NCBI GenBank assembly: GCA_964035575.1
Contig: OZ037835.1
Coordinates: forward strand, 1,364,001 to 1,428,000
Reading direction: 5' to 3'
Source of the DNA: Rhynchopus sp. YZ270_cl-10
Taxonomy: Eukaryota
DNA: 64,000 nucleotides
Part shown: in pieces, positions 34,390-60,002 of the stretch
Layout: each line of letters begins with the position of its first letter
Numbering within the stretch: position 1 is the stretch's first letter
Made by a program: the position numbers and the translations under genes
Notes under the pieces: generated by a model
The model's database searches: none
Seen by the model: only the letters and a program-made list of their open reading frames with translations
Told to the model about the DNA's origin: nothing

Positions 34390-35690
34390 CACAATCAGAC
34401 TTGTTTAAGCAGCTTTGCTGCGGATTGGGGCGGAGTGTGTTTCTCCTCCCCCGTACGTTTTACTTCACATCGGGTTTGTTTTTGGTTAGGGGTGCTTTAT
34501 CTCTTCAGCACATACTTGTTTGCCTTTGAGCAAAGAATAAAGACTGGTCTTTTTATATTTTTCCGGACCCCACCCCAAACCCTCCCAAACACTCAAATAA
34601 CAAGGACATTTGACAGTGGCTGAGAAAGAGGATAAGTCGTAATCTCATACAAAGTAACGCGCCCTTCCTCTCCAACTCCACGTCTACAAAACTATCAAGC
34701 AAAATTAAACAGAGTACAAAGCACTTTCAAAACATACAAAAAAACATTTTCAAACTCCCAAACACTCCTCAAACTCTATCAAGCGTTGGTTGTTTCGGCC
34801 TCCACATTCGCCCCCCTCATCGTAGCACCTCTTTTCGAGATTAAAGTATCCCCCTTCCCTCTGTTTATCATTTTATTCCTTGCTGTTCACCCGCGGGTCT
34901 TTTTGAGGTTATCTATATCAGATCACCAACACTTCCATATACTCCCAAACTCAAAATATTGCTTGCTTCAACTAGCTGATTAATAATATTGGCTATAAAT
35001 ATTATAGAAAAAAACGATGTACAGCCAAAGGCTTTATTGCTGTCGTTACCAATGTTGTGGAGCTTGATTTGTTTTGTTTTTTTTTAAATGTGCATGAGAG
35101 ACACGTTCATCTGAAAATAAGATACAAAAAATATGTTCGCGTTTATTTTATCGAACAGATTTTTGGAATCTGGACTAGGAAATTTGATGTTGGGATTGCT
35201 ATGAAACGTACTCTTTTTTTCTCTTCTTTGAAACTTCATCTTTCGATTGAAAATTATATCTTAATCTTTGAAACTGAATTACCCGCCCTTTTGTTTGTGC
35301 GAAGATCTCCAATAATATTAACTCAGGGTGCTTAGAAAGGATTGCATGAGTGGAGTCTTAGCATTGCCACATATCTGGGTATGTGGCCACTTGTGGTGGA
35401 TGGAGACGCACCGTGTTGTGGGGTTCTTTTGGGCTGGGGTGCTGAGGCAGGATTGCATGAGTGGAGACGTGGGTCGGAGACTCGGGTGCAGTGGGTATGC
35501 TGGAGTGCACAGTGCTGATGTCCCGCAGTTGTCTCGTCCTTTAGAATCGAAGGTGACGAAATAAAGCCTCAGACGTTTGCATCATTATTTGTTCTGCAAT
35601 GATACAAGAACCATCGGAGGGTCGTCACCCACAACCTCTGCACAAAAAGAAACCAACACAAAAGACACAGCAACAATACACAAACACACA

Positions 35691-37421: not shown

Positions 37422-38456
37422 AAGGTGCACAGGACGAGAGATCTTTCTGCCCCTAGTTTCGACAGCGAAACGTTTCCCCATGGATTGCACGGGAAACAAT
37501 ATGAGAAACAGGTGCAGGGTGGTTCCGTGCATATCATAGAACCTTGTGTGTCTTCCAAAAACCACAAGCGTTGTGCGTGAAGTTTTGAAGGAAGGAAAAA
37601 TAATATTTCGTCCTTTTTTGTTTTCTGCCACTGTACATCTTGATGTAATTAGCACTGTTTCCCCTTACCCCCTTTTGTACCCCACGTGTCCACCATACTT
37701 CAGGACACGTGTTTTCGGTATTTTTGGGTCTGCTTTGGGTTTGTGGTTGGGGGAAAAAAGGGACACTTATTTGGCTGGGAAAAGACATCATCCCTGACAA
37801 CACACTTGTGGAATCCCACACAGCTGACGCTGTGTGATAGCGGATGTGATCAAAGTGACTAAGCACAGAGAGGCTCAGGGTCTTCTTGTACACTTTTTCT
37901 TGTTTGCAGTACTGTATTTCTGTTTTATGACTCATTTTACACATGATCCTCAACCCCCTACTTTAGCTTTTCCGTTTGGAAGTTCGGATTGCGAATTTAT
38001 TTTGATCTTTTGTGCCCTCTGCACCCCTGTCAGACAAAAAGTGCGAATCCTGGAAAAAGTCCTGAATCAAAAGTGACTAGCAAGCATGAGAGGGTTTAGG
38101 TTTCATCACATAAACGTTCCTTAGCATTGCCACATATCTGGGTATGTGGCCACTTAGTGTGGTGGATGGAGACGCACCGTGTTGTGGGGTTCTTTTGGGC
38201 TGGGGTGCTGAGGCAGGATTGCATGAGTGGAGACGTGGGTCGGAGACTCGGGTGCAGTGGGTATGCTGGAGTGCACAGTGCTGATGTCCCGCAGTTGTCT
38301 CGTCCTTTAGAATCGAAGGTGACGAAAAAAAGCCTCAGACGTTTGCATCATTATTTGTTCTGCAATGATACAAGAACCATCGGAGGGTCGTCACCCACAA
38401 CCTCTGCACAAATAGAAACCAACACAAAAGAAACAGCAACAATACACAAACACACA

Positions 38457-40106
38457 ATGCCGAAGCGACACGCAGACAGCACGCAGGACGAGAAGCCACG
38501 AAAGAGAAGACAGCTTTCTGCAGGTGAGCTCTTGGTGGAGGCTGTCAGGAACGGTAACATTGTCAATACGACTGATGTGCGGGAGTTCCTTGGGCAGATC
38601 CCACACACGGCTGTGCACGAGGCATGCAGAAGGAACGACGATGAATGCCTCACACTGCTTCTTCCGTATGTTGAGACAACGCAGAAGGGCTTTGAGACCC
38701 TGCTGAGTGAGTGTGTCCACACAGACCACGTTGCGTGCACGGAGGTCCTCTTGCAGCATTGGAAGTCCGTCTGCAACAACGTGGCGTTTGTCCCGCACCA
38801 GTGGACAGACCCTGCAGTGTGTCGCGTCTTGATTGATGCAGGGGCAGACTTACATACAAAAGACGAGGACGGATGTTTGCCTCTGCACTCTGCTTGCGAT
38901 TCAGGAGCACTCGACGTTGTGAAGATGTTGGTTGAAGCAGGTGCAGAAGTGCGTGCCAAAAGCGACGACGGGGAGACCAGTTTTACCATGGCAGCAGCAC
39001 ACGGTCACACGGAGACTGTGTGCTATCTTTTGGGCTTGCCAGATGTCGATGTGAATCATGGCAACTTCAATGCGCTTCAATGTGCTGCGATGAATGGGCA
39101 CACAGAAGTGGTTCGGGTGCTGATTGATGCAGGTGCAGACATCGACATAAAAGACAACTACGATGGATGTTCGCCTCTGCACTATGCTTGCGAATCAGAA
39201 TCACTCGAAAGTGTGAAGATGTTGGTCAGAGCAGGTGCGGGAGTGCGTGCCACAAATCACCGGGGGGAAACGTGTCTTGTCCGTGCAGTTCACGCGGCAC
39301 ATTATGGAGACACCGAGATTCTGCGCTATCTTGTGTGCTTGCCAGAGGTCGATGTGAATTACCGACAGGGTGGCAACTGCACTGCGTTGCACTATGCGGT
39401 GGATGAAAAACCACGCACAGACGTGATACAGGTGCTGATTGATGCAGGTGCAGACATCGACGCAAAGAACAGCGAGGGACGTTCGCCTCTGCACTCTGCT
39501 TGCGCTTCAGGAGAACTTGACGTTGTGAAGATGTTAGTTGAAGCAGGTGCGGGAGTGCGTGCCACAAATGACCGAGGGGAACCGTGTCTTTTCCTTGCGG
39601 CACGTTGTGGACACACCGAGACTGTGCGCTATCTTGTGGGCTTGCCAGAGGTGGATGTGAATCGTCGATACGCTGGCAACTACACTGCGTTGCAGTGTGC
39701 GCTGGAGAATGAGGAAACAGACGTGGTGCAGGTGCTGATTGATGCAGGTGCAGACATTGTCACAAACAACAACGCTCTGCACTATGCTTGTGAAGAAGGA
39801 TCACTCGACATTGTGAAGATGTTAGTCAGAGCAGGTGCGGGAGTGCGCGCCACAAATGATGAAGGATGGACGTGTCTCATAACTGCGGCACGTTATGGAC
39901 ACACCGAGACTGTGCGCTATCTTGTGGGCTTGCCAGAGGTGGAACTGAACCACCGAGACACTGCAAAGAACTACACTGCGTTGCACTATGCGGTGGAGCA
40001 AAAACACACAGACGTTGCACAGGTGCTGACTGATGCACTGCTATTGCAGTTTGAGGCAGCAAACTCTCGTATAGCTGCACTGGAGGTGGTGGGGTGTCCC
40101 AGTTGA
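38457..40106 (+). CDS. Ankyrin-repeat protein, tandem array copy 2
   Basis: Intact ORF, same architecture. Confidence 0.92.
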   Translation: MPKRHADSTQDEKPRKRRQLSAGELLVEAVRNGNIVNTTDVREFLGQIPHTAVHEACRRNDDECLTLLLPYVETTQKGFETLLSECVHTDHVACTEVLLQHWKSVCNNVAFVPHQWTDPAVCRVLIDAGADLHTKDEDGCLPLHSACDSGALDVVKMLVEAGAEVRAKSDDGETSFTMAAAHGHTETVCYLLGLPDVDVNHGNFNALQCAAMNGHTEVVRVLIDAGADIDIKDNYDGCSPLHYACESESLESVKMLVRAGAGVRATNHRGETCLVRAVHAAHYGDTEILRYLVCLPEVDVNYRQGGNCTALHYAVDEKPRTDVIQVLIDAGADIDAKNSEGRSPLHSACASGELDVVKMLVEAGAGVRATNDRGEPCLFLAARCGHTETVRYLVGLPEVDVNRRYAGNYTALQCALENEETDVVQVLIDAGADIVTNNNALHYACEEGSLDIVKMLVRAGAGVRATNDEGWTCLITAARYGHTETVRYLVGLPEVELNHRDTAKNYTALHYAVEQKHTDVAQVLTDALLLQFEAANSRIAALEVVGCPS

Positions 40107-41141
40107 AAGGTGCACAGGAAGAGAGGCTTGCATCCTGTACTGTTTTCTGCCCCTAGTTTAGACAGCGAAACGTTTCCCCATGGATTGCACGGGAAACAAT
40201 ATGACAAACAGGTGCAGGGTGGTTCCGTGCATATCATAGAACCCGGCACCTTGTGTGTCCTCTAAAAACCAAAAGCGTTGTGTGTGAAGTTTTGAAGGAA
40301 GGAAAAATAATGTTTCATTCTTTTTTGTTTTCTGCCACAGTACATCTTGATGTCATTAGCAGTGTTTCCCCTTCCCCCCTTTTGTACCCCACCTGTCCAC
40401 CATACTTCAGGACACGTGTTTTCGGGTGTTTTTTGGGTCTGGTTTGGGTTTGTGGTTTGGGAAAAAACGGAGACTTATTTGGCTGGGAAAAGACATCATC
40501 CCTGACAACACACTTGTGGAATCCCACGCAGCTGATGCTGTGCGACAACGGATGTGATCAAAGTGACTAAGCACAGAGAGGCTCAGGGTCTTGTTGTGCA
40601 CTTTATTGTTTGCAGTACTGTATTTCTGTTTTATGACTCATTTTACACATGATCCTCAACCCCCTACTTTAGCTTTTCCGTTTGGAAGTTCGGATTGCGA
40701 ATTTATTTTGATCTTTTGTGCCCTCTGCACCCCTGTCAGACAAAAAGTGCGAATCCTGGAAAAAGTCCTGAATCAAAAGTGACTAGCAAGCATGAGAGGC
40801 TTTAGGTTTCATCACATAAACGTTCCTTAGCATTGCCGCATATCTGGGTATGTGGCCACTTAGTGTGGTGGATGGAGACGCACCGTGTTGTGCTGAGGCA
40901 GGATTGCATGAGTGGAGACGTGGGTCGGAGACTCGGGTGCAGTGGGTATGCTGCAGTGCGCAGTGCTGATGTCCCGCAGTTGTCTCGTCCTTTAGAATCG
41001 AAGGTGACGAAATAAAGCCTCAGACGTTTGCATCATTATTTGTTGTGCAATGATACAAGAACCATCGGAGGGTCGTCACCCACAACCTCTGCACAAAAAG
41101 AAACCAACACAAAAGACACAGCAACAATACACAAACACACA

Positions 41142-42938
41142 ATGCCGAAGCGACACGCAGACAGCACGCAGGACGAGAACCCACGAAAGAGAAGACAGCT
41201 TTCTTCAGACGAGGTCTTGGTGGAGGCTGTCAGGAACGGCGACACGACTGCCGTGCGGGCTTTCCTTGCTCAAACCTCACTCAGAAAAACAATGGCCTTC
41301 AATGCTGCGTACGTGGCATGCAGAAGGAACGACGATGAAAGCCTCACACTGCTTCTTCCGTATGTTGAGACAAAGCAGACGTTCTTTGGGATCCTGCTGA
41401 GTGAGTGTGTCCACGCAGACCACGTTGCGTGCACGGAGGTCCTCTTGCAGCATTGGAAGTCCGTCTGCAACAACGTGACATTCGTCCCCCAGGAGTGGGA
41501 ATTCCCTGCAGTGTGTCGCGTCTTGATTGATGCAGGGGCAGACATACATACAGGAGACGAGGACGGATATTTGCCTCTCCACACTGCTTGCGTTTTAGGA
41601 GCACTCGAACAACGTGGCGTTTGTCCCGCACCAGTGGTCAGACCCTGCAGTGTGTCGCGTCTTGATTGATGCAGGGGCAGACTTACAGATAACAGACGAG
41701 GAAGGATGTTCGCCTCTGCACTCTGCTTGTGAATCAGGAGCACTTGACGTTGTGAAGATGTTGGTTGAAGCAGGTGCGGAAGTGCGTGCCACAAATGACG
41801 AAGGGGACACCAGTTTTAGCAGGGCAGCAGCACATGGACACACGGACACTGTGCGCTATCTTTTGGGCTTGCCAGATGTCGATGTGAATCATGGCAACTT
41901 CAATGCGCTTCAATGTGCTGCGATAAATGAGTACCCAGACGTGGTGCAGGTGCTGATTGATGCAGGTGCAGACATTGACATAAAGGACGACTTCGATGGA
42001 TGTTCGCTTCTGCACTATACTTGCGCTTCAGGATCACTCGAGGGTGTGAAGATGTTGGTCAGAGCAGGTGCGGAAGTGCGTGCCACAAATGACGAAGGGG
42101 AAATGTGTCTTGTCCTTGCAGCACGTAATGGACACATAGAGACTGTGCGCTATCTTGTGTGCTTGCCAGAGGTGGATGTGAATTACCGACAGACTGACAA
42201 CTACACTGCGTTGCACTGTGCGGTGGATGAAAAACCACGCACAGACGTGGTGCAGGTGCTGATTGATGCAGGTGCAGACATCGACGCAAAGAACAACGAG
42301 GGATGTTCGCCTCTGCACACTGTTTGCGCTTCAGGAGCACTTGACGTTGTGAAGATGTTGGTTGAAGCGGGAGCGGGAGTGCGTGCCACAAATGGCCGAG
42401 GGGAAACGTGTCTTGTCCTTGCGGCACGTTGTGGACACACCGAGACTGTGCGCTATCTTGTGGACTTGCCAGAGGTGGATGTGAATCATGTGAATCGTCG
42501 ATACGCTGGCAACTACACTGCGTTGCAGTGTGCGCTGGAGGGTGAGAAAACAGACGCGGTGCAGGTGCTGATTGATGCAGGTGCAGATGTTGTCACAAAC
42601 AACAACGCTCTGCACTCTGCTTGCGTTTCAGGAACACTTGACATTGTGAAGATGTTGGTCAGAGCAGGTGCGGGAGTGCGTGCCACAAATGAGGAAGGAT
42701 GGACGTGTCTTATCACTGTGGCATTTTTTGGACACATCGAGCTTGTGCGCTATCTTGTGGGCTTGCCAGAGGTGGAACTGAATCACCGAGACACTGCAAA
42801 GAACTACACTGCGTTGCACTATGCGGTGGAGCAAAAACACACTGAAGTTGCACAGGTGCTGACTGATGCACTGCTATTCAGTTTGAGGCAGCAAACTCTC
42901 GTATAGCTGCACTGGAGGTGGTGGGGTGTCCCATTTGA
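41142..42938 (+). pseudogene. Ankyrin-repeat array copy 3, chimeric and frameshifted
   Basis: At ~41608 the sequence jumps from …GGAGCACTCGA back to ACAACGTGGCGTTTGTC (a different paralogue version of the preceding segment), shifting frame. A 1-nt deletion near 42879 (ctattcagttt vs ctattgcagttt) alters the C-terminus. Confidence 0.85.
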
Positions 42939-44020
42939 AAGGTGCACAGGACGAGAGGCTTTCATATTATATTGTTTTCTGCCCCTAGTTTCGAGAGCGA
43001 AACGTTTTCCCATGGATTGCACGGGAAACAATATGACAAACAGGTGCAGGGTGGTTCCGTGCATATCATAGAACCCGGCACCTTGTGTGTCTTCTAAAAA
43101 CCAAAAGCGTTGTGTGTGAAGTTTTGAAGCAAGGAGAAATAATATGGGGTGTCCCCAACCCCGGTGAAATCCGGGCGAAATCGGGTGAAATCGGGCGAAA
43201 TCGGGCAAAAACAGGGTTTTTTGGCTTCTGTGAGGGTTTGGCCCAGTAAAACACCCAGAAACCGCGCTTTTCGAGATTTCCGGGCTGGGTCTGCAGGGTT
43301 TTCGCTATGGGGGTACCGGGGTACCGCCGGTACCCCCAAAGAAAAATTTGGGGAAAAAACCCGATTTTTGGGGGTACGGCGGTACCCCCAACGGTACTTG
43401 AGGGTTTAGGGTTAGTGGGAAATGTTTTTTTTCTTCTTTTTTTTTTCCTCTCGGCAAGACGTGGCGCAAATCTTTCAATTGCGGCCATAATCGGGGGAAA
43501 ATATGCTTCTGTGGGGTCCTTGCCGTTCCGAGAGAAGGAAAAAGTAGCGTACCGTGCGCCTGCGGCGCAAAACTTATGAGCGGAATCCCACAGCCCTCTA
43601 CCATAGTTTGGCTGTAAAAATGTTTGATTTTAAGTCACAATTTTTGAAATGTTGCGTACCGTGGCTTTCGCCACAAAGTTTAGATATTATGACTGCCGTT
43701 TCTTCTTGTACTGAGGGAAGGCAGGCGTAGAAAAAACATGAGAAAAAGGGTTGGTTTGGTTCTTGATGTACATTACCATCCCACGTCATCACGTATTTAC
43801 ATGAAATGAACGGACCTTTTCGCGCGGAGCGCGAAAATTTTTTTTTGACCCTTTTTTTTTGCCGGTGCCCCCAAAAAAAAAAAAAATAGCGATTTCTGGC
43901 GAAAACACTGCAGAGTCTGGGTACAGGGGTGGAGGTGCGTCTACTGACCCGGTTTCAAAACCGGGTCAAAAAAAAAAAAATGGGATTTTGGCGAAAAACC
44001 CGGTTTGGAAAAAAATAAAA

Positions 44021-45462
44021 GGGTAAATTGCGATAACACGTATACTTTTTTTTTCGATTTGCGATAACACGTACACAAAAAGTATACGTGTTATCGCGAA
44101 AAAGTGTACGTGTTTTCGCAAACAAAAACGTACGTGTTTTCCCAGGTACCCAGGTACCCAGGTACCCAGGTACCCAGGTACCCAGGTACCCAGGTACCCA
44201 GGTACCCAGGTACCCAGGTACCCAGGTACCCAGGTACCCAGGTACCCAGGTACCCAGGTACCCAGGTACCCAGGTACCCAGGTACCCAGGTACCCAGGTA
44301 CCCAGGTACCCAGGTACCCAGGTACCCAGGTACCCAGGTACCCAGGTACCCAGGTACCCAGGTACCCAGGTACCCAGGTACCCAGGTACCCAGGTACCCA
44401 GGTACCCAGGTACCCAGGTACCCAGGTACCCAGGTACCCAGGTACCCAGGTACCCAGGTACCTGGTTTGTCAAGGAAACCAAACTTTTTGTCACGGAAAA
44501 AGTCGTGACAGGGCACTGGGTACTGGGTACACTGTGTACAAGGATAAAAGTCGTGAAAGAGCAACCACAGCTCCACATGACAAACACAAAAGTGTCCAGT
44601 CACGTGGGGCATTCATGCACTGAGGAGATAATGATCCAACAATTTACAAGAAAGATTACTTAACCTACTGCTGGAAGTTGCCAGGTCGTAGTAACACACA
44701 AAGTGTGCCTCCGTTCGGGAATACCGGATATTCTAGAGACCAAAAAGGCCTCTTCCGCTAGTCAAGGTATAACCGAATGAACGGCCCAAGACCCCCGTGG
44801 AGAAGTTAAATGTTGTAATGCTATCAAGTACAAACTGCGACCACTGTCTTACCCTCCTCAATGCATGGTGGAAGATGTCTTTGACAACAAATATCCTGTA
44901 CCCAGGTACCCATATTCCCAGACCCACGCAGTACCACGTCGCAGTACTACGCAAAATTTACCACCAGACCCTGTCTTCGTGCACCTTAAGTACGTAAGTC
45001 TGGTTCCCAGACCCACGCAGTGGCACATGACCGCAAGTGTGAGTGACCCACAGAGGGATACGCAAAATTTACCACCAGACCCTGTCTTCTGAATGTCACA
45101 CGTACATTTTTTTGAACACTTTTCGCGATAACACGTACATATTTCGCTAAAAAACGGGGTGCTCGCAACCGCGTTCTAGACCCCTACAGATGCTCAAAAG
45201 TGCCAAATTTTGCTTTGAATGGCCTCAAATCGTCGAAATTAGCCATTTTTGGGGCCCAAAAAAAAAAATTCGAGGGTCTAGGTATGGAGAGCGAGCACCT
45301 TAGAAGAAGGAAACACGTACATTTTTGTTCGCGATAACACGTATACTTTTTTGACCACTTTTCGCGATAACACGTACACTTTTTCGCGATAACACGTATA
45401 CTTTTTGTGTACGTGTTATCGCAAATGGAAACAAAAAGTATACGTGTTATCGCAATTTGCCC
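44021..45462. mobile_element. Non-autonomous TIR element B (GCGATAACACGTA subrepeats), apparent 9-bp TSD AAAATAAAA (Mutator-like)
   Basis: gggtaaattgcgataacacgtatacttttt / aaaaagtatacgtgttatcgcaatttgccc; carries the CCAGGTAC array and part of the element A cargo. Confidence 0.8.
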
Positions 45463-45705: not shown

Positions 45706-47856
45706 GGGAAAATGACTATAACACCCATGTTACTAATACCCATTTACGATAATACCCACTGGGTATTATCGTAAACTTTTTGGGTATTATCGTAAAGTTT
45801 TTGGGTATTATCGTAAACTATTTGGGTATTAGTTTTGGGTATTATCGTAAACTTTTTGGGTATTACCCAGGTACCCAGGTACGATGTGATTTAGCTGGCT
45901 ACTCGCGCAAGGTATCAGAGGCGCTCGCACGCTGGTGAATGTGCAGACAAGGTATGGTTTCATCGACCCCAGAGAAAATACAATTTTCACTAAATATATG
46001 GGGGGGGGTTTTTTTTTACACAACTTTTTGCATCCCTGTCTTACATCCTCAAATTCAGGGTAACCATTTTTCTTGACAATTAACAATTAATCTTTCTCCA
46101 AGCGACATAACTTAATTACACCCACATTTACACTCATCACAGGATCGCGAAATCTGAACTGCATCAGCGATTGCGCTTCTCCGTCTCCGACATTCTACAC
46201 CTCAACATACGAAGACCTGGGTGGGAACATTTAGTCAGTCACTGCTATAGCCATTAACCCAGGGAGCATAGCTAGTGCAAGAAATTCGACTTTGGCAACC
46301 TTCCGGAAAGTCTGTCCTCTGCTCGCGGAGGACTAGACACAAGAAAATATTGCGTTCCCCCAGAAAACCAGTGCACATTTCACACTCCTTGTGGGTGGTC
46401 TTGTTGCCTTTTCGTCATAGTAATTTTGGCCCAGGCATGTTCTTGAAGCATGACAATTTAGTGTGTATGGGGCAGGGTGTTGTTTTGTTCTGAATTCTCT
46501 TTGTTATAACATCTAAGTCAATCGCGGGTGGTGGTTTGTGTAGCGTGAGGCACTCTTTTTAGCAAACTTCCTGCGGCTGCTAAAGTGTTATTTCTTCGGA
46601 TTTAACAACGTACAGCGTAACATAGTGGTTTCGCCTGGTCGACACAACCTTTGATAGATATGGGATAACCAACCCCCTTCGACCCCTTGTGGGTTCACTG
46701 AACAAGCCCTAGTGGTAGTTAAACGCGATTGACATTTACATTCCTAGAGATGAAAGAACAAGACAACACTTCTGTACCCGCGCATCAAAATTGTGGAAAA
46801 CTTTGCACCCCAAACACCCTCAACAACGCCCGCCAAAAGGCGCCCCTTGTTGCTGGGAGTTGGTTCTCATGATACCTGCACAGCGGGCATTCCTCTGAGT
46901 CCAACGCATGTTTGGCCTGTCTGCGGCGTTGTACTTAAGGTGCACGAAGACAGGGTCTGGTGGTAAATTTTGCGTAGTACTGCGACGTGGTACTGCGTGG
47001 GTCTGGGAATATGGGTACCTGGGTACAGGATATTGGTTGTGTAAGACATCTTCCACCATGCATTGAGGAGGGTAAGACAGTGTTCGCAGTTTCTACCTGA
47101 TAGCATTACAACATTTAACTTCTCCACGGGGGTCTTGGGCCGTTCACTCGGTTCTACCTTGACTACCGGAAGATATTCTTGAGGCCTTTTTGGTCTCTAG
47201 AATATCCGGTCTTCCCGAACGGAGGCACACTTTGTGTGTTACTACGACCTGGCAATTTCCAGCAGTAGGTTAAGTAATCTTTCTTGTAAATTGTTGGATC
47301 ATTATCTCCTCAGTGCATGAATGCCCCATGTGACTGGACACTTTTGTGTTTGTCATGTGGAGCTGTGGTTGCTCTTTCACGACTTTTTTCCTGTTCCTGG
47401 GTACCTGTTCCTGGACCTGGACCTGGGTACCTGGGTACCTGGGTACCTGGGTACCTGGGTACCTGGGTACCTGGGTACCTGGGTACCTGGGTACCTGGGT
47501 ACCTGGGTACCTGGGTACCTGGGTACCTGGGTACCTGGGTACCTGGGTACCTGGGTACCTGGGTACCTGGGTACCTGGGTACCTGGGTACCTGGGTACCT
47601 GGGTACCTGGGTACCTGGGTGCCTGGGTGCCTGGGTGCCTGGGTGCCTGGGTGCCTGGGTACTACCCAACCTGGGTAATACCCAAAAAGTTTACGATAAT
47701 ACCCAAAAAGTTTACGATAATACCCAAAACTAATACCCAAAAAGTTTACGATAATACCCAAAAAGTTTACGATAATACCCAAAAAGTTTACGATAATACC
47801 CAGTGGGTATTATCGTAAATGGGTATTAGTAACGTGGGTGTTATGATAATTACCCC
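45706..47856. mobile_element. Non-autonomous TIR element C (TTTACGATAATACCCA subrepeats), cargo inverted relative to element A
   Basis: Inverted termini of ~170 bp with poly-T flanks; ~46238-47400 is the reverse complement of ~31850-33012. Confidence 0.8.
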
Positions 47857-48391: not shown

Positions 48392-49613
48392 TTGGGTGGG
48401 TATTGGCACAAACCATTGTAGGTACACGCGCCAATAACGTTCAACCCGCTCCTCCAGGCTGTTTCCTAATTCTGGAAATTTTCCGGAAAATTCCATCTGG
48501 AAGCAAATATTTTCCCTGAAAAAAAGTGGGCTCCAAAACATGCAGCGATTGGCATTTCCGGAATCCGTCCGTGCTGTGGTGGGGTCACTTGCCCGAAATG
48601 GCCAAGTTCTTGGTTTTGGTCAAACCCCGCCCAAGCTCCCCACTCCCAACCCAAAAAAAGGAATTTTTGAAGACCGGGCGAAATCGGGTGGAATTGGGTT
48701 CAGGTGGGCCCAGGGGGGCTCTAGGGGGGCGATTGTGGGCTGGTCGCGGGACACCACATAATATTTCATTCTTTTTTGTTTTCTGCCACTGTACATCTTG
48801 ATGTAATTAACACTGTTTCCCCTTCCCCCCTTTTGCACCCCACGTGTCCACCATACTTCAAGACACGTGTTTTCGGGATTTTTTAGGTCTGCTTTGGGTT
48901 TGTGGTTTGGGAAAAAAGGGAGACTTCTTTGGCTGGGAAAAGACATCATCCCTGACAACACACTTGTGGAATCCCACGCAGCTGATGCTGTGTGATAGCG
49001 GATGTGATCAAGGTGACTAAGCACAGAGAGGCTCAGGGTCTTGTTGTGCACTTTATTGTTTGCAATACTGTATTTCTGTTTTATGACTCATTATACACAT
49101 GATCCTCAACCCCCTACTTTAGCTTTTCCGTTTGGAAGTTCGGATTGCGAATTTATTTTGAGCTTTTGTGTCCTCTGCACCCCTGCCAGACAAAAAGTGC
49201 GAATCCTGGAAAAAGTCCTGAATCAAAAGTGACTAGCAAGCATGAGAGGGTTTAGGTTTCATCACATAAACGTTCCTTAGCATTGCCGCATATCTGGGTA
49301 TGTGGCCACTTAGTGTGGTGGATGGAGACGCACCGTGTTGTGGGGTTCTTTTGGGCTGGGGTGCTGAGGCAGGATTGCATGAGTGGAGACGTGGGTCGGA
49401 GACTCGGGTGCAGTGGGTATGCTGCAGTGCACAGTGCTGATGTCCTGCAGTTGTCTCGTCCTTTAGAATCGAAGGTGACGAAAATAAAGCCTCAGACGTT
49501 TGCATCATTATTTGTTGTGCAATGATGCAAGAACCATCGGAGGGTCGTCACCCACAACCTCTGCACAAAAAGAAACCAACACAAAAGACACAGCAACAAC
49601 ACACAAACACACA

Positions 49614-51284
49614 ATGCCGAAGCGACACGCAGACAGCACGCAGGACGAGAACCCACGAAAGAGAAGACAGCTTTCTGCAGGTGAGGTCTTGGTGGAGGCT
49701 GTCAGGAACGGTAACATTGTCAATACGACTGATGTGCGGGAGTTCCTTGAGCAGATCCCACACACGGCTGTGCACGAGGCATGCAGAAGGAACGACGATG
49801 AATGCCTCACACTGCTTCTTCCGTATGTTGACACAACGCAGAAGGGCTTTGGGATGCTGCTGAGTGAGTGTGTCCACGCAGACCACGTTGCGTGCACGGA
49901 GGTCCTCTTGCAGCATTGGAAGTCTGTCTGCAACAACGTGGCGTTTGCCCCTTTCGAGTGGACAGACCCTGCAGTGTGTCGCGTCTTGATTGATGCAGGG
50001 GCAGACTTACATACAAAAGACGAGGAAGGATGTTCGCCTCTGCACTCTGCTTGTGAATCAGGAGCACTTGACGTTGTGAAGATGTTGGTTGAAGCAGGTG
50101 CGGAAGTGCGTGCCACAAATGACGAAGGGGAGACCAGTTTTACGAGGGCAGCAGCATACGGTCACAGAGAGACTGTGCGCTATCTTGTGGGCTTGCCAGA
50201 TGTCGATGTGAATCATGGCAACTTCAATGCGCTTCAATGTGCGGCGATGAATGAGTTCCCGGAGGTGGTGCAGGTGCTGATTGATGCAGGTGCAGACATC
50301 GACATAACAGCCAACTTCGATGGATGTTCACCTCTGCACTATGCTTGTGAATCAGGATCACTCGAGGGTGTGAAGATGTTGGTCAGAGCAGGTGTGGGAG
50401 TGCGTGCCACAAATAACCGAGGGCAAACGTGTCTTGTCCGTGCAGTTCACGCGGCACGTTATGGACACATAGAGGCTTTGCGCTATCTTGTGTGCTTGCC
50501 AGAGGTGGATGTGAATTACCGACAGGCTGGCAACATCACTGCGTTGCACTATGCGGTGGATGAAAAACCACGCACAGACGTGGTACAGGTGCTGATTGAT
50601 GCAGGTGCAGACATCGACGCAAAGAACAACGAGGGACGTTCGCCTCTGCACTCTGCTTGCGCTTCAGGAGAACTTGACGTTGTGAAGATGTTGGTTGAAG
50701 CAGGTGCGGGAGTGCGTGACACAAATGGCCGAGGGGAAACGTGTGTTGTTCTTGCGGCACGTAATGGACACACCGAGACTGTGCGCTATCTTTTGGGCTT
50801 GCCAGAAGTAGATGTGAATCATGTGCATCGTCGATGCGCTGGCAACTACACTGCGTTGCAGTGTGCGCTGGAGAATAATAAACCTGACGTGGTGCGGGTG
50901 CTGATTGATGCAGGTGCAGACATCGACGCAAAGAACAACTACGGATGTTCGCCTGTGCACTCTGCTTGCGTTTCAGGAACACTTGACATTGTGAAGATGT
51001 TGGTCAGAGCAGGTGCGGGAGTGCGCGCCACAGATAATGACGGATGGACGTGTCTTATCTCTGCGGCATTTTTTGGACACATCGATATTGTGCGCTATCT
51101 TGTGGGCTTGCCAGAGGTGGAACTGAATCACCGAGACACTGCAAAGAACTACACTGCGTTGCACTATGCGGTGGAGGAAAATCACACAGAAGTTACACAG
51201 GTGCTCACTGATGCACTGCTATTGCAGTTTGAGGCAGCAAAGTCTCGTATAGCTGCACTGGAGGTGGTGGGGTGTCCCATTTGA
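49614..51284 (+). CDS. Ankyrin-repeat protein, tandem array copy 4
   Basis: Intact ORF, same architecture. Confidence 0.92.
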   Translation: MPKRHADSTQDENPRKRRQLSAGEVLVEAVRNGNIVNTTDVREFLEQIPHTAVHEACRRNDDECLTLLLPYVDTTQKGFGMLLSECVHADHVACTEVLLQHWKSVCNNVAFAPFEWTDPAVCRVLIDAGADLHTKDEEGCSPLHSACESGALDVVKMLVEAGAEVRATNDEGETSFTRAAAYGHRETVRYLVGLPDVDVNHGNFNALQCAAMNEFPEVVQVLIDAGADIDITANFDGCSPLHYACESGSLEGVKMLVRAGVGVRATNNRGQTCLVRAVHAARYGHIEALRYLVCLPEVDVNYRQAGNITALHYAVDEKPRTDVVQVLIDAGADIDAKNNEGRSPLHSACASGELDVVKMLVEAGAGVRDTNGRGETCVVLAARNGHTETVRYLLGLPEVDVNHVHRRCAGNYTALQCALENNKPDVVRVLIDAGADIDAKNNYGCSPVHSACVSGTLDIVKMLVRAGAGVRATDNDGWTCLISAAFFGHIDIVRYLVGLPEVELNHRDTAKNYTALHYAVEENHTEVTQVLTDALLLQFEAAKSRIAALEVVGCPI

Positions 51285-52150
51285 AAGGTGCACAGGACGA
51301 GAGGCTTTCATCTTGCAATGTTTTCTGCCGCAACACATCTGGAAATGAATGCCTTCTTCGATGTCCTGTTTCCCCTTCCCCCCTTTTGTACCCCACCTGT
51401 CCACCATACTTCAGGACACGTGTTTTCGGTGTTTTTTGGGTCTGGTTTGGGTTTGTGGTTTGGGAAAAAACGGAGACTTATTTGGCTGGGAAAAGACATC
51501 ATCCCTGACAACACACTTGTGGAATCCCACGCAGCTGATGCTGTGCGATAACGGATGTGATCAAAGTGACTAAGCACAGACAGGCTCAGGGTCTTCTTGT
51601 GCACTTTTTCTTGTTTGCAGTACTGTATTTCTGTTTTATGACTCATTTTACACAGGATGGTACTCTGCAAAAAGTACATGAATTCCTGATGAAAAATGAA
51701 AATGTAACTGTGTCCCGTCTTTCCGGATATCGCTATCAAGACATGTAATGTTATATGGAACTATAGTATTCCATGTACCTCCCATTGCTTCGCCATCGTG
51801 CAAACACCCGAATCCGTGCATGAGCATGCTCGAGGCTTTAAAAAAAAAGAAACTCTTGTTTATTTCCCCCACACCTCCTCACCTTCTCCACATCACCATC
51901 ACCCTCCGTTACCTATGATACAGAGCGACACAAATATGGATTTGACTATCAGGGGGTTGAACGGAGTGAAGGATACGGTGGAGCTGGGTGAGGATGACAC
52001 ACTTGCGGTGATGCGGCGGAAGGTGGCGACTGCAGTGGGGTTGCCTGAAGACGGCTTTTGCATGAGTTTCGGATGTGAACCGATTGGAGCAGGAGCGGAC
52101 ATGACGCAGCTGAGCGCTGGTGATACAATCATCCTCACGAAGACTCAGAA

Positions 52151-52224
52151 GGGGGCAATTAACGTCTGACCAACCGCCAAGTGGGGCCCCTGGACGCCGT
52201 GTTCGCATGGTACTGAGTCAGCGT
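52151..52224 (+). ncRNA. HDV-like self-cleaving ribozyme (predicted)
   Basis: P1 GGGGGC(52151-56)/GCCCCT(52186-91) with leading G-U; P2 ACG[T]CTGA(52162-69)/TCAGCGT(52218-24); P3 CCA/TGG; L3 ACCGCCAAG with CC pairing GG(52192-93) as P1.1; P4 GCCGTG-TTCG-CATGGT; J4/2 A-C(52213)-TGAG. Folded by eye. Confidence 0.75.
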
Positions 52225-53785
52225 GGGCGGCCGCCTCTCCAATGATGGATTCGCTCGGGACCGGAGGAGGAACAAGCCGATGTGGGAACCCTGGTTATTA
52301 ATACAACATCACAGTCAATTTCGGGCAGATCACCAGCTTATGTAGGCTACGCAAACCCCTTCGGAGGGGTTTCAAGGATCTGTTACCTGTGCGGTGACTG
52401 GGAGTGTGTTGATGCCGATGAGGGGATCCCAGGTACAAGAAGGAAGCGTTGCCGGTGTCTCTACTGGTGACGGAATATTGTTGCTGTTCCTGTGTTGTCG
52501 TTTGACCGCATGGGAACGTTGTGTTGCTTTGTTGGTGCGTACACTGCATGTGAAACAACTGTGGATCAGCAGGTACGTGCTCTTGTGTATTCAGTGTGGT
52601 GTGTTGTAGTTTTGTTCAGTTCAGTTCAGTTTTCATCTTTTTGCCGTAGTAGAATTCTTGTGTTATGTGTTTAACCTCAGGCTGTGTACACCGTAGTGAA
52701 ACATCTGTGGATCTGCAGGTGCGTGCTCTGTCGTTAATTCAGTGTGGCATGTTGTAGTTTTTGGTCTGTTTTTACGTTTTTGATACGTTAGTAGAAGAAG
52801 GGATCTGCGAACATTCATTCGCAGGTGGGTACAAGTTGTCGCCGTGGCATTCAGCTACGGTGCAGAAGAAGTAGTAGGGCAGACCAACGTCTGTGCTAGA
52901 AGGAAGAGGTTAAACTTTCAGGGTGTATGCACTCTGCAGGTACATGCTCTGTTGTTTTCCAATGTGTTTGTTTTTGTTCTATTTTCACGTGCTTTGGTAC
53001 GTTGGAGATGAAGGAGTTGTCGCCGTGGCGTCCAGCTACGGTGCAGAAGAGGCAGTAGGGCAGACCAACTACCAAATGTAGGGTCTGTGCTACGCGGAAA
53101 GGCTGGTACTTGAGTTTGTTCACTGTTTGTTGTAACTCCTTCCCTACCGGTACTCCCTTTCTTGTAAGGAAGAAGTTACAACTTTCTCTGTACAAATCAG
53201 GGGAATTTTGTGTGGCCGTCTGCCATATTGTGTGGACATGTTAGCTGACGGTGCTGCTGTTTCTTTTACAACAACACTGCTCTTGCTGTTGATTTTTCTT
53301 TTTCATTTTTACTTTTTATTGTTTCGAAAAACGGAGGTTAATGTTTCCGGTTCGGGCCTGGACTCCGACCCCTACTCTTGCTGACGCGAACGAACGGTCG
53401 TGAACCGTCCCCATTCTCTTACGGTGTGGGCACCGCGGTAACGGTGGCTAGGAAGAAGGGAATCACCCAGAACCACTAATCGCAGCCTGACAGGCACCGA
53501 ACCTCGGGTGAGAATCCCCTCCTGTCAGCCCTGTTCGAAGTACCTATTTTGTTTGACCTTCTTGTCTTTTTGACTTTTTGACTTTTTCTTTTATGCTATC
53601 GAACAGTGCACCCCCAGTAGTGTTGGCATGCATACCTGGGCTGGTCGGCTTGCCGATCTGTTCCAGGGACTGGGGTAAAGTGCCACTAAACGCAGCAGGT
53701 ACCTGTGTTTTTTGGGGGTCTTTTGGTTGGGAAGGCCACAGAAAGAAGGCCCGGCCTGCCAGAGACCGTTAAAACGGACTACCAC
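52151..53785 (+). mobile_element. Non-autonomous non-LTR retroelement-like insertion (~1.63 kb, no long ORF)
   Basis: Direct repeat CCTCACGAAGACTCAGAA(G) at 52133-52151 and 53786-53804; no TIRs; 5' HDV-like fold; 3' hairpin CCGTT-AA-AACGG followed by ACTACCAC. Confidence 0.85.
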
Positions 53786-55140
53786 CCTCACGAAGACTCA
53801 GAAGTACCAAGCCATTGCAGAGCTTCATGCGTTGGGTGTGACCGACATCACAGCCGAGAGGTTGGAGAGTGTGAAGGATCCTGAGGTGGCGTGTTTGCTT
53901 CTGCAGGCGGAGGTTGCGACTGTCATTCCGCATGACTTCTTGTCAGACACTTCGTTGACGAGACTTGATCTCAGTGCTGAGTCCATTGTGACTCGCATTG
54001 GAAACAGCTTCCTATGCAACTGCACCTCGTTGACCAGTATCAATCTCTCTGGGTTGAGCAATGTGACGCAGGTTGGTGAGGGCTTCCTTGCGTTATGCAG
54101 TCGCTTAACGACCCTGGATTTATCGCCACTCAGCAACGTTACGTGGATTCATCACAGCTTTCTTTCCGGCTGCACGAGGTTAACCACCATCGATTTATCA
54201 GCACTCAGCAATGTGACGCACGTTGGCTCATCTTTCCTTTACAACTGCAGCAGCTTAACATCCCTGGATTTATCCGCACTCAGCAATGTGACGTCGATTG
54301 GTTTGAGTAGCATTACTTCTACTACCCGATTTGCTTCGAACTGCACTTCGTTGACGAGCATTTACCTTTCCGGCTGCAGCAGTGTTGTGTCCAACGAAGT
54401 GAGGAAGCGTGAGAAACTGAGTAAGCTTCTGGTTGAAGCACAATGACGGAGTGGAAGGACGTGACATGTCTCGCACAGATGATGTGGAACCCACCTATCC
54501 TACCAGAAGTCCACAAGACTTCAAAAGCGTCCATTTTTTGTACCCAACCACAGAGTCTCCCCGAGACACAGTGAACAGACCACACACCGCAGGACATACA
54601 TCCCCTCGAGAATGCCCTCAAGACACCCCATCCTCAACCCCCTACTTTAGATTTTCCGTTTGGAAGTTCGGATTGCGAATTTATTTTGATCTTTTGCGTC
54701 CTCTGCACCCCTGTCAGACAAAAAGTGCGAATCCTGGAAAAAGTCCTGAATCAAAAGTGACTATCAAGCATGAGAGGGTTTAGGTTTCATCACATAAACG
54801 TTCCTTAGCATTGCCGCATATCTGGGTATGTGGCCACTTAGTGTGGTGGATGGAGACACACCGTGTTGTGGGGTTCTTTTGGGCTGGGGTGCTGAGGCAG
54901 GATTGCATGAGTGGAGACGTGGGTCGGAGACTCGGGTGCAGTGGGTATGCTGCAGTGCACAGTGCTGATGTCCCGCAGTTGTCTCGTCCTTTAGAATCGA
55001 AGGTGGCGAAATAAAGCCTCGGCCGTTTGCATCATTATTTGTTCTGCAATGATGCAAGAACCATCGGAGGGTCGTCACCCACAACCTCTGCACAAAAAGA
55101 AACCAACACAAAAGACACAGCAACAATACACAAACACACA

Positions 55141-56790
55141 ATGCCGAAGCGACACGCAGACAGCACGCAGGACGAGAACCCACGAAAGAGAAGACAGCTT
55201 TCTGCAGGCAAGACCTTGGTGGAGGCTATCAGGAACGGTGACATTGTCAATACGACTGATGTGCGGGAGTTCCTTGGGCAGATCCCACACACGGCTGTGC
55301 ACGAGGCATGCAGAAGGAACGACGATGAATGCCTCACACTGCTTCTTCCGTATGTTGACACAACGCAGAAGGGCTTTGGGATGCTGCTGAGTGAGTGTGT
55401 CCACGCAGACCACGTTGCGTGCACGGAGGTCCTCTTGCAGCATTGGAAGTCCGTCTGCAACAACGTGGCGTTTGTCCCGCACCAGTGGACAGACCCTGCA
55501 GTGTGTCGCGTCTTGATTGATGCAGGGGCAGACTTACATACGAAAGGCGAGGACGGATGTTTGCCTCTCCACACTGCTTGCATTTTAGGAGCACTTGACG
55601 TTGTGAAGATGTTGGTTGAAGCAGGTGCGAGTGTGCGTGCCAGAACTGACGTAGGGGAGACCAGTTTTACCATGGCAGCAGGATATGGTCACACGGAGAC
55701 TGTGCGCTATCTTTTGGGCTTGCCTGATGTCGATGTGAATCATGGCAACTTCAATGCGCTTCAATGTGCTGCGAGGAATGGGCACACAGACGTGGTGCAG
55801 GTGCTGATTGATGCAGGTGCAGACATCGACATAACAGCCAACTTCGATGGATGTTCGCTTCTGCACGATGCTTGTAAATCAGGATCACTCGAAGGTGTGA
55901 AGATGTTGGTCAGAGCAGGTGTGGGAGTGCGTGTCACAAATGACAATGGGGAGACGTGTCTTGTCCGTGCAGTTCAGGCGGCACGTTATGGTCATATCGA
56001 GGCTTTGCGCTATCTTGTGTGCTTGCCAGAGGTGGATGTGAATTACCGACAGGGTGGCGACTACACTGCCTTGCACTATGTGATGGATGAAAAACCACGC
56101 ACAGACGTGGTGCAGGTGCTGATTGATGCCGGTGCAGACATCGGCGCAAAGAACAACTACGGACATTCGCCTTTGCACGCTGCTGGCGCTTCAGGAGAAC
56201 TTGACGTTGTGAAGATGTTGGTTGAAGCAGGTGCGGGAGTGCGTGCCACAAATGGCCGAGGGGAACCGTGTCTTTTCCCTGCAGCACGTAATGGATACAC
56301 CGAGACTGTGCGCTATCTTGTGGGCTTGCCAGAGGTGGATGTGAATCGTCGATACGCTGGCAACCGTACTGCGTTGCAGTGTGCACTGGAGAATAATAAA
56401 CCAGACGTGGTGCAGGTGCTGATTGATGCAGGTGCAGATATTGTCACAAACAACAACGCTCTGCACTCTGCTTGCGTTTTAGGATCACTCGACATTGTGA
56501 AGATGTTGGTCAGAGCAGGTGCGGGAGTGTGTGCCACAAATGATGAAGGATGGACGTGTCTTATCTCTGCGGCACGTTATGGACACACTGACACTGTGCG
56601 CTATCTTGTGGGCTTGCCAGAGGTGGAACTGAACCACCGAGACACTGCAAAGAACTACACTGCGTTGCACTATGCGGTGGAGGAAAATCACAAAGAAGTT
56701 GCACAGGTGCTCACTGATGCACTGCTATTGCAGTTTGAGGCAGCAAACTCTCGTATAGCTGCACTGGAGGTGGTGGGGTGTCCCATTTGA
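55141..56790 (+). CDS. Ankyrin-repeat protein, tandem array copy 5
   Basis: Intact ORF, same architecture. Confidence 0.92.
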   Translation: MPKRHADSTQDENPRKRRQLSAGKTLVEAIRNGDIVNTTDVREFLGQIPHTAVHEACRRNDDECLTLLLPYVDTTQKGFGMLLSECVHADHVACTEVLLQHWKSVCNNVAFVPHQWTDPAVCRVLIDAGADLHTKGEDGCLPLHTACILGALDVVKMLVEAGASVRARTDVGETSFTMAAGYGHTETVRYLLGLPDVDVNHGNFNALQCAARNGHTDVVQVLIDAGADIDITANFDGCSLLHDACKSGSLEGVKMLVRAGVGVRVTNDNGETCLVRAVQAARYGHIEALRYLVCLPEVDVNYRQGGDYTALHYVMDEKPRTDVVQVLIDAGADIGAKNNYGHSPLHAAGASGELDVVKMLVEAGAGVRATNGRGEPCLFPAARNGYTETVRYLVGLPEVDVNRRYAGNRTALQCALENNKPDVVQVLIDAGADIVTNNNALHSACVLGSLDIVKMLVRAGAGVCATNDEGWTCLISAARYGHTDTVRYLVGLPEVELNHRDTAKNYTALHYAVEENHKEVAQVLTDALLLQFEAANSRIAALEVVGCPI

Positions 56791-57708
56791 AAGGTGCACA
56801 GGACGAGAGGCTTTTATCAGGGGATGCGTCCAAGTAAATCACGTCAGCAGAAAAGTTCGAGAATGTAGGTTTTATTATTTTCTGCCACTGTACATCTTGA
56901 TGTAATTAACACTGTTTCCCCTTCCCCCCTTTTGCACCCCACCTGTCCACCATACTTCAGGACACGTGTTTTCGGTGTTTTTTGGGTCTGGTTTGGATGG
57001 TTTGGAGAAAAAAGGGAGACTTATTTGGCTGGGAAAAGACATCATCCCTGACAACACACTTGTGGAATCCCACACAGCTGACGCTGTGTGATAGCGGATG
57101 CGATCAAAGTGACTAAGCACAGACAGGCTCAGGGTCTTCTTGTGCACTTTATTGTTTGCAGTACTGTATTTCTGTTTTATGACTCATTATACACATGATC
57201 CTCAACCCCCTACTTTAGCTTTTCCGTTTGGAAGTTCGGATTGCGAATTTATTTTGAGCTTTTGTGTTCTCTGCATCCCTGTCAGACAAAAAGTGCGAAT
57301 CCTGGAAAAAGTCCTGAATCAAAAGTGACTAGCAAGCATGAGAGGGTTTAGGTTTCATCACATAAACGTTCCTTAGCATTGCCGCATATCTGGGTATGTG
57401 GCCACTTAGTGTGGTGGATGGAGACACACCGTGTTGTGGGGTTCTTTTGGGCTGGGGTGCTGAGGCAGGATTGCATGAGTGGAGACGTGGGTCGGAGACT
57501 CGGGTGCAGTGGGTATGCTGCAGTGCACAGTGCTGATGTCCTGCAGTTGTCTCGTCCTTTAGAATCGAAGGTGACGAAATAAAGCCTCAGACATTTGCAT
57601 CATTATTTGTTGTGCAATGATACAAGAACCATCGGAGGGTCGTCACCCACAACCTCTGCACAAAAAGAAACCAACACAAAAGACACAGCAACAACACACA
57701 AACACACA

Positions 57709-59376
57709 ATGCCGAAGCGACACGCAGACAGCACGCAGGACGAGAACCCACGAAAGAGAAGACAACTTTCTGCAGGTGAGGTCTTGGTGGAGGCTGTCAG
57801 GAACGGCGAGACGACTGCCGTGCGGGCGGTCCTTGAGAAGTTCAACCCAGACACAGTGGCCTTTGATGCGGCGCACGAGGCATGCAGACGGAACGACGAT
57901 GAATGCCTCACACTGCTTCTTCCGTATGTTGAGACAACGCAGAAGGGCTTTGGGATGCTGCTGAGTGAGTGTGTCCACGCAGACCACGTTGCGTGCACGG
58001 AGGTCCTCTTGCAGCATTGGAAGTCCGTCTGCAACAGCGTGACATTTGTCCCGCAGCAGTGGACAGACCCTGCAGTGTGTCGCGTCTTGATTGATGCAGG
58101 GGCAGACTTACATACAAAAGACAAGTACGGATGTTCAATTCTGCACTCTGCTTGTGAATTAGGAGCACTTGACGTTGTGAAGATGTTGGTTGAAGCAGGT
58201 GCGGCGGGAGTGCATGCCACGAATGACGAAGGACAACGGTATTTTACTGTTGCAGCAGAGTGTGGACACACGGAGACTGTGTGCTATCTTGTGGGCTTGC
58301 CAGATGTCGATGTGAATCATGGCAACTTCAATGCGCTTCAATGTGCTGCGATGAATGAGTACCCAGACGTGGTGCAGGTGCTGATTGATGCAGGTGCAGA
58401 CATCGACATAACAGCCAACTTCGATGGATGTTCGCCTCTGCACTATGCTTGTGAATCAGGATCACTCGAAAGTGTGAAGATGTTGGTCAGAGCAGGTGCG
58501 GAAGTGCGTGCCACAAATCACCGGGGGGAAACGTGTCTTGTCCGTGCGATTCACGCGGCACGTTATGGACACATCGAGACTCTGCGCTATCTTGTGTGCT
58601 TGCCAGAGGTGGATGTGAATTACCGACACGCTGGCAACTACACTGCGTTGCACTGTGCGGTTGATGAAAAACCACGCACAGACGTGCTGCAGGTGCTGAT
58701 TGATGCAGGTGCAGACATCGACGCAAAGAACAACGAGGGACGTTCGCCTCTGCACTCTGCTTGCGCTTCAGGAGCACTTGACGTTGTGAAGATGTTGGTT
58801 GAAGCAGGTGCGGGAGTGCGTGCCACAAATGACCGAGGGGAAACGTGTCTTATCCTTGCGGCACGTAATGGACACACCGAGACTGTACGCTATCTTGTGG
58901 GCTTGCCAGAGGTGGATGTGAATCATGTGAATCGTCGATACGCTGGCAACTACACTGCGTTGCAGTGTGCGCTGGAGAATGATAAAACAGACGTGGTGCA
59001 GGTGCTGATTGATGCAGGTGCAGATGTTGTCACAAACAACAACGCTCTGCACTCTGCTTGCGTTTTCGGATCACTTGACGTTGTGAAGATGTTGGTCAGA
59101 GCAGGTGCGGGAGTGCGTGCCACAAATGATGAAGGATGGACGTGTCTTATCTCTGCGGCACGTTATGGACACACTGACACTGTGCGCTATCTTGTGGGCT
59201 TGCCAGAGGTAGAACTGAATCACCGAGACACTGCAAAGAACTACACTGCGTTGCACTATGCGGCGGAGCAAAAACACACTGAAGTTGCACAGGTGCTCAC
59301 TGATGCACTGCTATTGGAACTTGAGGCAGCACACTCTCGTATAGCTGCACTGGAGGTGGTGGGGTGTCCCATTTGA
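57709..59376 (+). CDS. Ankyrin-repeat protein, tandem array copy 6
   Basis: Intact ORF, same architecture. Confidence 0.92.
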   Translation: MPKRHADSTQDENPRKRRQLSAGEVLVEAVRNGETTAVRAVLEKFNPDTVAFDAAHEACRRNDDECLTLLLPYVETTQKGFGMLLSECVHADHVACTEVLLQHWKSVCNSVTFVPQQWTDPAVCRVLIDAGADLHTKDKYGCSILHSACELGALDVVKMLVEAGAAGVHATNDEGQRYFTVAAECGHTETVCYLVGLPDVDVNHGNFNALQCAAMNEYPDVVQVLIDAGADIDITANFDGCSPLHYACESGSLESVKMLVRAGAEVRATNHRGETCLVRAIHAARYGHIETLRYLVCLPEVDVNYRHAGNYTALHCAVDEKPRTDVLQVLIDAGADIDAKNNEGRSPLHSACASGALDVVKMLVEAGAGVRATNDRGETCLILAARNGHTETVRYLVGLPEVDVNHVNRRYAGNYTALQCALENDKTDVVQVLIDAGADVVTNNNALHSACVFGSLDVVKMLVRAGAGVRATNDEGWTCLISAARYGHTDTVRYLVGLPEVELNHRDTAKNYTALHYAAEQKHTEVAQVLTDALLLELEAAHSRIAALEVVGCPI

Positions 59377-60002
59377 AAGGTGCACAGGACGAGAGGCTGT
59401 CGACCATAATTCAGGACACGTGTTTTCACGTATTTTTTGGGTCTAGTTTGGGTTGGCGGTTTAGAAAAAAAAGGGACACTATTTGGGTGGGGAAGAGACC
59501 TCACCTGAATGATCATTTCGTTCATCTGACTGATGAGTGGAAGCAGGTGGAAGGAATATCAGATGTAAACCACGAAATGGATTCAACTTTTTTATTTTCA
59601 GTGTCACATTTGATTTTCCATGTTGCTTCGCACGTCGTGTATCACTCACATCGCACCCATACACACACATTCGTGGACAAAGGTGTACGTTTCAATCCAC
59701 ACACGTAGCCCATTTTTGAGCTTCATGTCTCCCAAACATACATCCCACGGGTCAAAGCTTTCTCTACGAAGTGCCCACCAGATGCTTCCGGAGTTGAGTG
59801 CGTCCCGACGTCTTCCCGTGAGTTGCTGCACCAGCTCACGTATGCAGTCAGCGAGGTTCTCGTTCTTAGGTTCCTGATATTGACCCGATTTCCATTTTTT
59901 TTTTTTTTTGGGCAATTTCCGAACGTTGCTACGGAAGCCCCGAACTGATATGAATCACTCCCACAGCAGCCTAACACCCACTACACAACACAACACAACA
60001 CA

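Follow-up and report, generated by a model that had tools for sequence, protein, structure and literature searches.

The processing of retroelement 5' ends by HDV-like ribozymes is known already. R2 ribozymes adopt an HDV-like fold whose P1 begins at the 5' junction of the element, and R2, the R4/Dong ribozymes and the R2 SIDE elements are all located, site-specifically and in sense orientation, in a multicopy host gene (PMC3774820, in part), the target of R2 being the 28S rRNA. The Pr77 sequences of L1Tc/ingi (NARTc, RIME, SIDER) form a compact HDV-like fold of ~75 nt at the 5' end of non-coding elements, and the ingi/L1Tc insertions are accompanied by duplications of 7-11 nt and a poly(A). 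Members of the CRE clade (SLACS, CZAR, CRE1/2) occupy a fixed position in a multicopy gene, namely that of the spliced-leader RNA, generate duplications and contain internal repeats; the accessible part of PMC12278014 reports no ribozyme for them. Lastly, TcTREZO of Trypanosoma cruzi is a site-specific repeat of ~1.57 kb with tandem copies, located mostly in a protein-coding multigene family (MASP pseudogenes); it is described as a composite of host sequences, and the available portions of PMC5814959 and PMC3155523 mention no ribozyme. The targets listed in PMC4640811 are transposons, microsatellites, telomeres and the genes of rRNA, spliced-leader RNA, tRNA and U2. As regards diplonemids, LINE, SLACS and R2-like ORFs have been recorded in the D. 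papillatum genome, their rigorous analysis being deferred (PMC10161547, in part), and a search of open papers, with Repbase and most subscription journals outside its range, disclosed no description of an element like the one reported below or of a diplonemid ribozyme.

The window analysed here (i.e., the whole stretch of DNA, 64,000 nt long) harbors an insertion that is probably, judging from its sequence, a site-specific non-LTR retroelement of the non-autonomous kind, headed by 74 nt that would act as a divergent HDV-like 5'-processing ribozyme. Like R2 and R4/Dong, it lies site-specifically and in sense orientation in a multicopy host gene, and the P1 of its HDV-like fold begins at the 5' junction; moreover, the 6 bp of this helix fit the range of 6-7 bp of the R2 ribozymes, in which a mismatch on top is allowed (PMC3774820, in part). 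It differs from R2 in the target, which is a protein-coding family, and from R2/R4 in a very short J1/2, in a G·G or an A at the loop pair, and in that no partner ORF was found. With the Pr77 elements it shares the compact fold at a non-coding 5' end and a likely euglenozoan host, but its P1.1 has 2 bp, its target is strictly defined at the codon level, and the 5' strand of its P1 is G-rich, whereas that of Pr77 is C-rich, so that the polarity is reversed. The earlier note had held that the sequence does not resemble the ingi/L1Tc signature of 77 nt, and this is borne out by the absence of Pr77 and of a poly(A) and by the longer duplication, of 19 nt; membership in ingi/L1Tc is ruled out, the Pr77 hallmark being absent and only the P3/L3 core being similar (comparison by eye with PMC4035085, in part). 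The CRE clade, which the element resembles in fixed position, duplications and internal repeats, is ruled out as well by the different target (an Ubl-LRR coding sequence) and by the lack of an ORF for a reverse transcriptase (RT) and a restriction-like endonuclease; a poly(A) is also missing. TcTREZO, likened to the element by description only, comes closest to it as a non-coding element with a protein-coding family as target.

The insertion and its target family

A repeat comparison within the window disclosed an exact direct repeat of 19 nt on the two sides of the insertion (Table 1). The base G52151 closes this repeat and at the same time is G1 of the ribozyme; hence the claim that G1 lies at the upstream junction between duplication and element holds, with an ambiguity of one base. 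No long ORF is present in the insertion (52152-53785) in any of the six frames, no terminal inverted repeats were detected by an inverted-repeat search, and no poly(A) tail is found at its 3' end; a second copy was not found within the 64-kb window. The absence of terminal inverted repeats rules out a DNA transposon, and VIPER/TATE elements are ruled out since they create no target duplications. The segment 53110-53209, around the internal hairpin, has a folding z of -3.5 on the + strand and of -5.2 on the - strand.

Table 1. Features of the insertion and of the interrupted host gene (positions in the window)
Feature	Position	Strand	Basis or remark
Host gene 5' part, ubiquitin-like (Ubl) domain	51936..52151	+	intact paralogues carry PF00240
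Target duplication (TSD), upstream copy	52133..52151	+	exact match to 53786-53804
Host bases complementary (7 bp) to 52213-52219	52142..52148	+	inverted-repeat search, centroid fold
Putative HDV-like ribozyme fold, predicted cleavage 5' of G52151	52151..52224	+	descriptor matches, pairing check
ORF-less insertion, 1634 nt	52152..53785	+	1635 nt when G52151 is included
Degenerate direct repeats inside the element	52550..53069	+	spacings of 146, 181 and 221 nt
Imperfect 33-bp hairpin inside the element	53115..53196	.	inverted-repeat search
Element 3' terminal motif	53771..53785	+	few bases unlike the form in other copies
TSD, downstream copy	53786..53804	+	exact match to 52133-52151
Host gene 3' part, BspA-type LRR	53787..54446	+	PF13306, E 4.9e-15

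The frame of the host 5' part, which taken alone gives no Pfam match, enters the element and meets a stop codon at 52167-52169, and the host reading frame is restored once 1653 nt are removed. The element is in sense orientation, and the genes of the window are all on one strand. Ankyrin-repeat genes in tandem, likewise + (35357-43145 and 49276-59398; also 10936-12585), form the array in which the interrupted Ubl-LRR gene is embedded.

The host Ubl-LRR family comprises 861 relatives, and the Ubl part precedes the site in 106 of the 120 listed. Since the first codons of the element add a short tail and a stop, interrupted paralogues appear as truncated proteins: the 5' sequence of the element ends 12 of 39 predicted proteins (31 and 8 from two listings of relatives, one being the window's own) at one shared codon, the window's own protein included among the 12. 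Ten of them are in the frame of the window and two are shifted by one base, with one extra G, which fits an element that would start in five Gs, i.e., at G1 of the ribozyme. These 12 proteins are 58-95% identical, are encoded on contigs of four different lengths and probably all derive from the window's own assembly. At the other end, 8 of the 120 listed LRR matches start, at this very site, with a 3' junction of the element type; three match the last codons of this element, and the other five (P0011, P0040, P0064, P0090, P0111) share the terminal motif only and differ upstream of it, thus showing a second 3' end type, which may be that of a subfamily or of the autonomous partner. The traits of a non-autonomous site-specific non-LTR element seen here are the duplication, the lack of terminal repeats, the occupation of one site in many loci and the multicopy state. 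As far as these predicted proteins and junctions indicate, the element is multicopy and is targeted to one codon of a protein-coding multigene family, a point that the earlier note had missed.

Putative ribozyme fold and catalytic core

The elements of a nested double pseudoknot (P1, P2, P3, P1.1 and P4) can be paired in order, as had been claimed, with two possible registers of P3 and L3. P1 consists of G52151·U52191 and of five Watson-Crick pairs through C52156-G52186; the 6 bp previously counted are confirmed, but A52157/G52185 on top of them, formerly taken as an A-G pair, is a mismatch. P2 reaches 8 bp at most, U52165 forming the single bulge expected. The partner bases of P1.1 (G52192/G52193) directly follow P1, and P4 has 6 bp, two of them G·U, and the UUCG loop that had been described, closed by a G-C rather than a C-G pair. 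J4/2, likewise present, reads C52213-U-G-A, with C52213 as the candidate catalytic C and A52216, beside P2, as the conserved A.

The register of the earlier note pairs C52170-G52184, C52171-G52183 and A52172-U52182 in a P3 of 3 bp with an L3 of 9 nt. These pairs exist, but A52173 would then stand at the first loop position, where HDV needs a U, and in antigenomic HDV four of four U-to-A mutants at this position were inactive (PMC3386971, in part). An alternative, shifted register has a P3 of 2 bp (C52174-G52184 and C52175-G52183) and an L3 of 7 nt (52176-52182), in which C52177/C52178, at loop positions 2-3, form P1.1 with G52193/G52192, while P2 has 8 bp and is flush with J4/2. Here G52176·G52181 replaces the U·G pair, and G52181 occupies the position of G25. 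The trans pair U20·G25 of L3 is thus absent in both registers, with an A at position 20 in the one and a G·G in the other. The HDV mutant with a G·G loop pair is active, though 470-fold slower (PMC3386971, in part); G25 is important in other HDV-like members as well (PMC13635239 and PMC3774820, both in part), and the first loop residue varies also among active silkmoth R2 ribozymes (PMC3774820, in part). The shifted register appears the more likely of the two, and its cleavage is predicted to be slower; the short P3, its separation from P2 by 2-3 unpaired bases and the lack of U20 speak against it, and neither register is canonical. Because the canonical U·G loop pair is absent, the sequence is classed as one that would work like the HDV-like ribozymes, its membership among them being provisional. 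A by-eye comparison of the shifted register with the core of the L1Tco Pr77 (supplement of PMC4035085, in part) gave 12 of 16 positions alike, which may reflect a shared constraint instead of descent.

The check with Rfam models suggested by the earlier note went against it, since no covariance model matched 52151-52224, either in a 6-kb search with E up to 5 or over the whole window at gathering scores. A folding program that cannot draw pseudoknots gave another hairpin as the nested fold of minimum energy, with a z of +1.41. Furthermore, the complementary host bases at 52142-52148 might compete for the catalytic strand and so damp cleavage, even if their complementarity might also be due to chance. 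In the JGI metagenomes, an exact 24-nt pattern gave no match, and a degenerate core pattern gave 44, none of which contained P1 and P2 together (0/44) or resembled the element by BLAST; diverged relatives of the ribozyme were thus not found by the JGI metagenome scans or by BLAST with the element. Overall, the interpretation given in the earlier note is partly supported.

Copies in public runs and rival explanations

Part of the stretch is contained in 10 public sequencing runs from 6 studies; 6 of the 22 runs listed were examined, all as contigs, which drop rare variants. No RNA run is listed among those containing it, which has no bearing on expression. In run X1, one contig spans 52147-52258 with zero differences at a depth of 2745, versus 83-129 for single paralogue contigs; this excess of ~20-fold suggests some twenty copies, depth being a rough guide. 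Three X1 contigs connect the ribozyme, with 1-3 differences, to different paralogue-like flanks, and one linking contig has the 3' end of the element before the duplication, i.e., a head-to-tail copy. Empty-site joints can also be seen among the run contigs. An upstream flank is visible in X1 for at least 781 of about 2745 depth units (17 of the 28 pieces listed), and one loose end of X3 carries another 3' flank behind 53767; because of this shortfall and of this loose end, the target specificity of the element may not be absolute. No substitution is listed for the ribozyme region in the contigs of X1 and X3, and those of X9 cover it from 52207 onwards only. As to the covariation of copies, which had been proposed as a check, the copies in X1 and X3 are identical and thus show no covariation of the helices. 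Internally deleted variants of the element occur in X1 and X3 (window 53133-53642 and 52511-52828).

These data permit the weighing of other explanations. The element might be a real site-specific retroelement with a fold that has become, in this lineage, a weak or dead relic, its 5' end being set by an internal promoter or a host nuclease. The missing U·G loop pair in either register points in this direction, as do the competing folds, namely the lower-energy hairpin and the pairing of upstream host bases with the catalytic strand, and several well-folded Pr77 ribozymes are inactive in vitro (PMC4035085, in part). However, no helix is disrupted, the catalytic C and the G pair of P1.1 are retained, and many copies, young in appearance and with 5' ends at most one base from G1, show no variation in this region; we therefore regard a relic as unlikely.

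It might be argued that gene duplication or conversion carried a single insertion from paralogue to paralogue, RNA taking no part in this and the ribozyme being incidental. This would agree with the single contigs of run X6, which, at the depth of the element, join it to one upstream and one downstream flank (other flanks could be hidden by the low coverage of this run), and with the 3' motif variant, which tracks a downstream codon variant in 5/5 and 3/3 proteins. Nevertheless, the first 112 nt of the element are invariant next to Ubl domains that diverge by as much as 42%, the head-to-tail copy exists with one duplication in between, and the 5' junction varies by one base, all of which render such a spread quite improbable.

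The third explanation, a chance pairing at the G+C-rich end of the element, concerns the fold alone. A loose descriptor finds 0.76 chance matches per 64-kb strand (335 Markov shuffles) and one other match in the window, within a microsatellite; for this frequency the fold by itself is unremarkable in 64 kb, and what is remarkable is its start at the junction. The lack of an Rfam match, the positive z and the post hoc descriptors are further points in favor of chance. When the first 120 nt were dinucleotide-shuffled 50,555 times, however, the fold occurred anywhere in 30 shuffles and from base 1-2 in 4, and, when a G25-type loop was demanded, anywhere in 7 and from base 1-2 in 0, figures that are somewhat flattering since both descriptors were composed when the sequence had already been seen. 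Moreover, the junction is the very position at which R2 and L1Tc ribozymes are known to start, and a fold due to chance is accordingly held to be very improbable.

Finally, it is scarcely credible that the insertion is a mobile non-canonical intron whose splicing restores the gene: removal of 1653 nt does restore the frame in 20 registers, including a GG..AG register, and its ends, rich in G on the 5' side and in C on the 3' side, are reminiscent of the non-canonical introns of hemistasiids (PMC12621601), but there is no GT..AG register, the end-to-end pairing is modest (-13.3 kcal/mol), the hemistasiid introns have median lengths of 37-91 nt (PMC12621601), and self-cleavage would work against splicing.

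Proposed mechanism, significance and other features of the window

For the preferred reading, that of a retroelement with its own 5'-processing ribozyme, a mechanism can be proposed whose steps beyond the anatomy are modelled on R2 and L1Tc (PMC6765202 and PMC3185411, both in part). Because of its sense orientation among genes that are all on one strand, the element would be co-transcribed, being read sense-wise within the transcription unit of the host gene. The ribozyme would fold co-transcriptionally and cut 5' of G52151, with C52213 as general acid, and this cleavage would yield the exact 5' end of the element, making a promoter unnecessary. An RT/endonuclease supplied by an autonomous partner elsewhere might then bind the 3' terminal motif; the target specificity and the long duplication make a restriction-like endonuclease the likeliest type. 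A further paralogue, or a duplication already present, would be cut by the partner with a stagger of ~19 nt, and the RNA of the element would be copied in by target-primed reverse transcription.

Novelty would lie in the use of HDV-like 5' processing by an element directed to a protein-coding multigene family, in what is likely a diplonemid host, and in a catalytic loop that departs from the U·G signature. If active, the ribozyme would widen the descriptors by which the class is found, Rfam having missed this 74-nt sequence. The partner would supply a sequence-specific integrase whose target is new. The more ambitious proposal, i.e., an undescribed retroelement lineage aimed at one codon of a large protein-coding family, in place of rRNA, snRNA, tRNA or spliced-leader genes, and provided with an active HDV-like ribozyme whose core naturally contains a G·G pair and a P3 of reduced length, is put forward tentatively, as a possibility that falls short of being probable.

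Other paralogues carry foreign tails. One tail is shared by P0255, P0260 and P0262 and another by P0253 and P0256, both ~20 codons downstream of the site, and single further tails are present in P0263, P0265, P0270 and P0275 at or near it; by eye, none of the other paralogue tails matches the reverse strand of the element. The different shared tails suggest that several distinct elements might target this family at fixed codons, so that several other elements appear to have colonised it. The codons of the P0263 tail could spell a canonical HDV-type P3/L3 core, which is a guess from back-translation. The Ubl-LRR family may represent a coding-sequence 'safe harbour', with members switched off or split by self-cleaving insertions.

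Other features of the window can be mentioned. A near-perfect palindrome of 1.2 kb (24159-25358) is 97.8% identical to its own reverse complement. Inverted copies of 1.45 kb, 97% identical and with long microsatellite runs, lie at 31583-33032 and 46219-47662 (also 44141-44993), and are possibly another mobile element family. A match to BILBO1_N stays below the cutoff, and the genes form same-strand intronless arrays; the assignment to a euglenozoan host, likely a diplonemid, draws on these two features. Membrane proteins with no Pfam match are encoded at 27264-29054 and 689-3287; the former belongs to a large expanded family with 364 relatives and resembles adenylate/guanylate cyclases in Atlas at 0.88, a resemblance to bacterial cyclase clusters, all below 0.9, that serves as a lead only.
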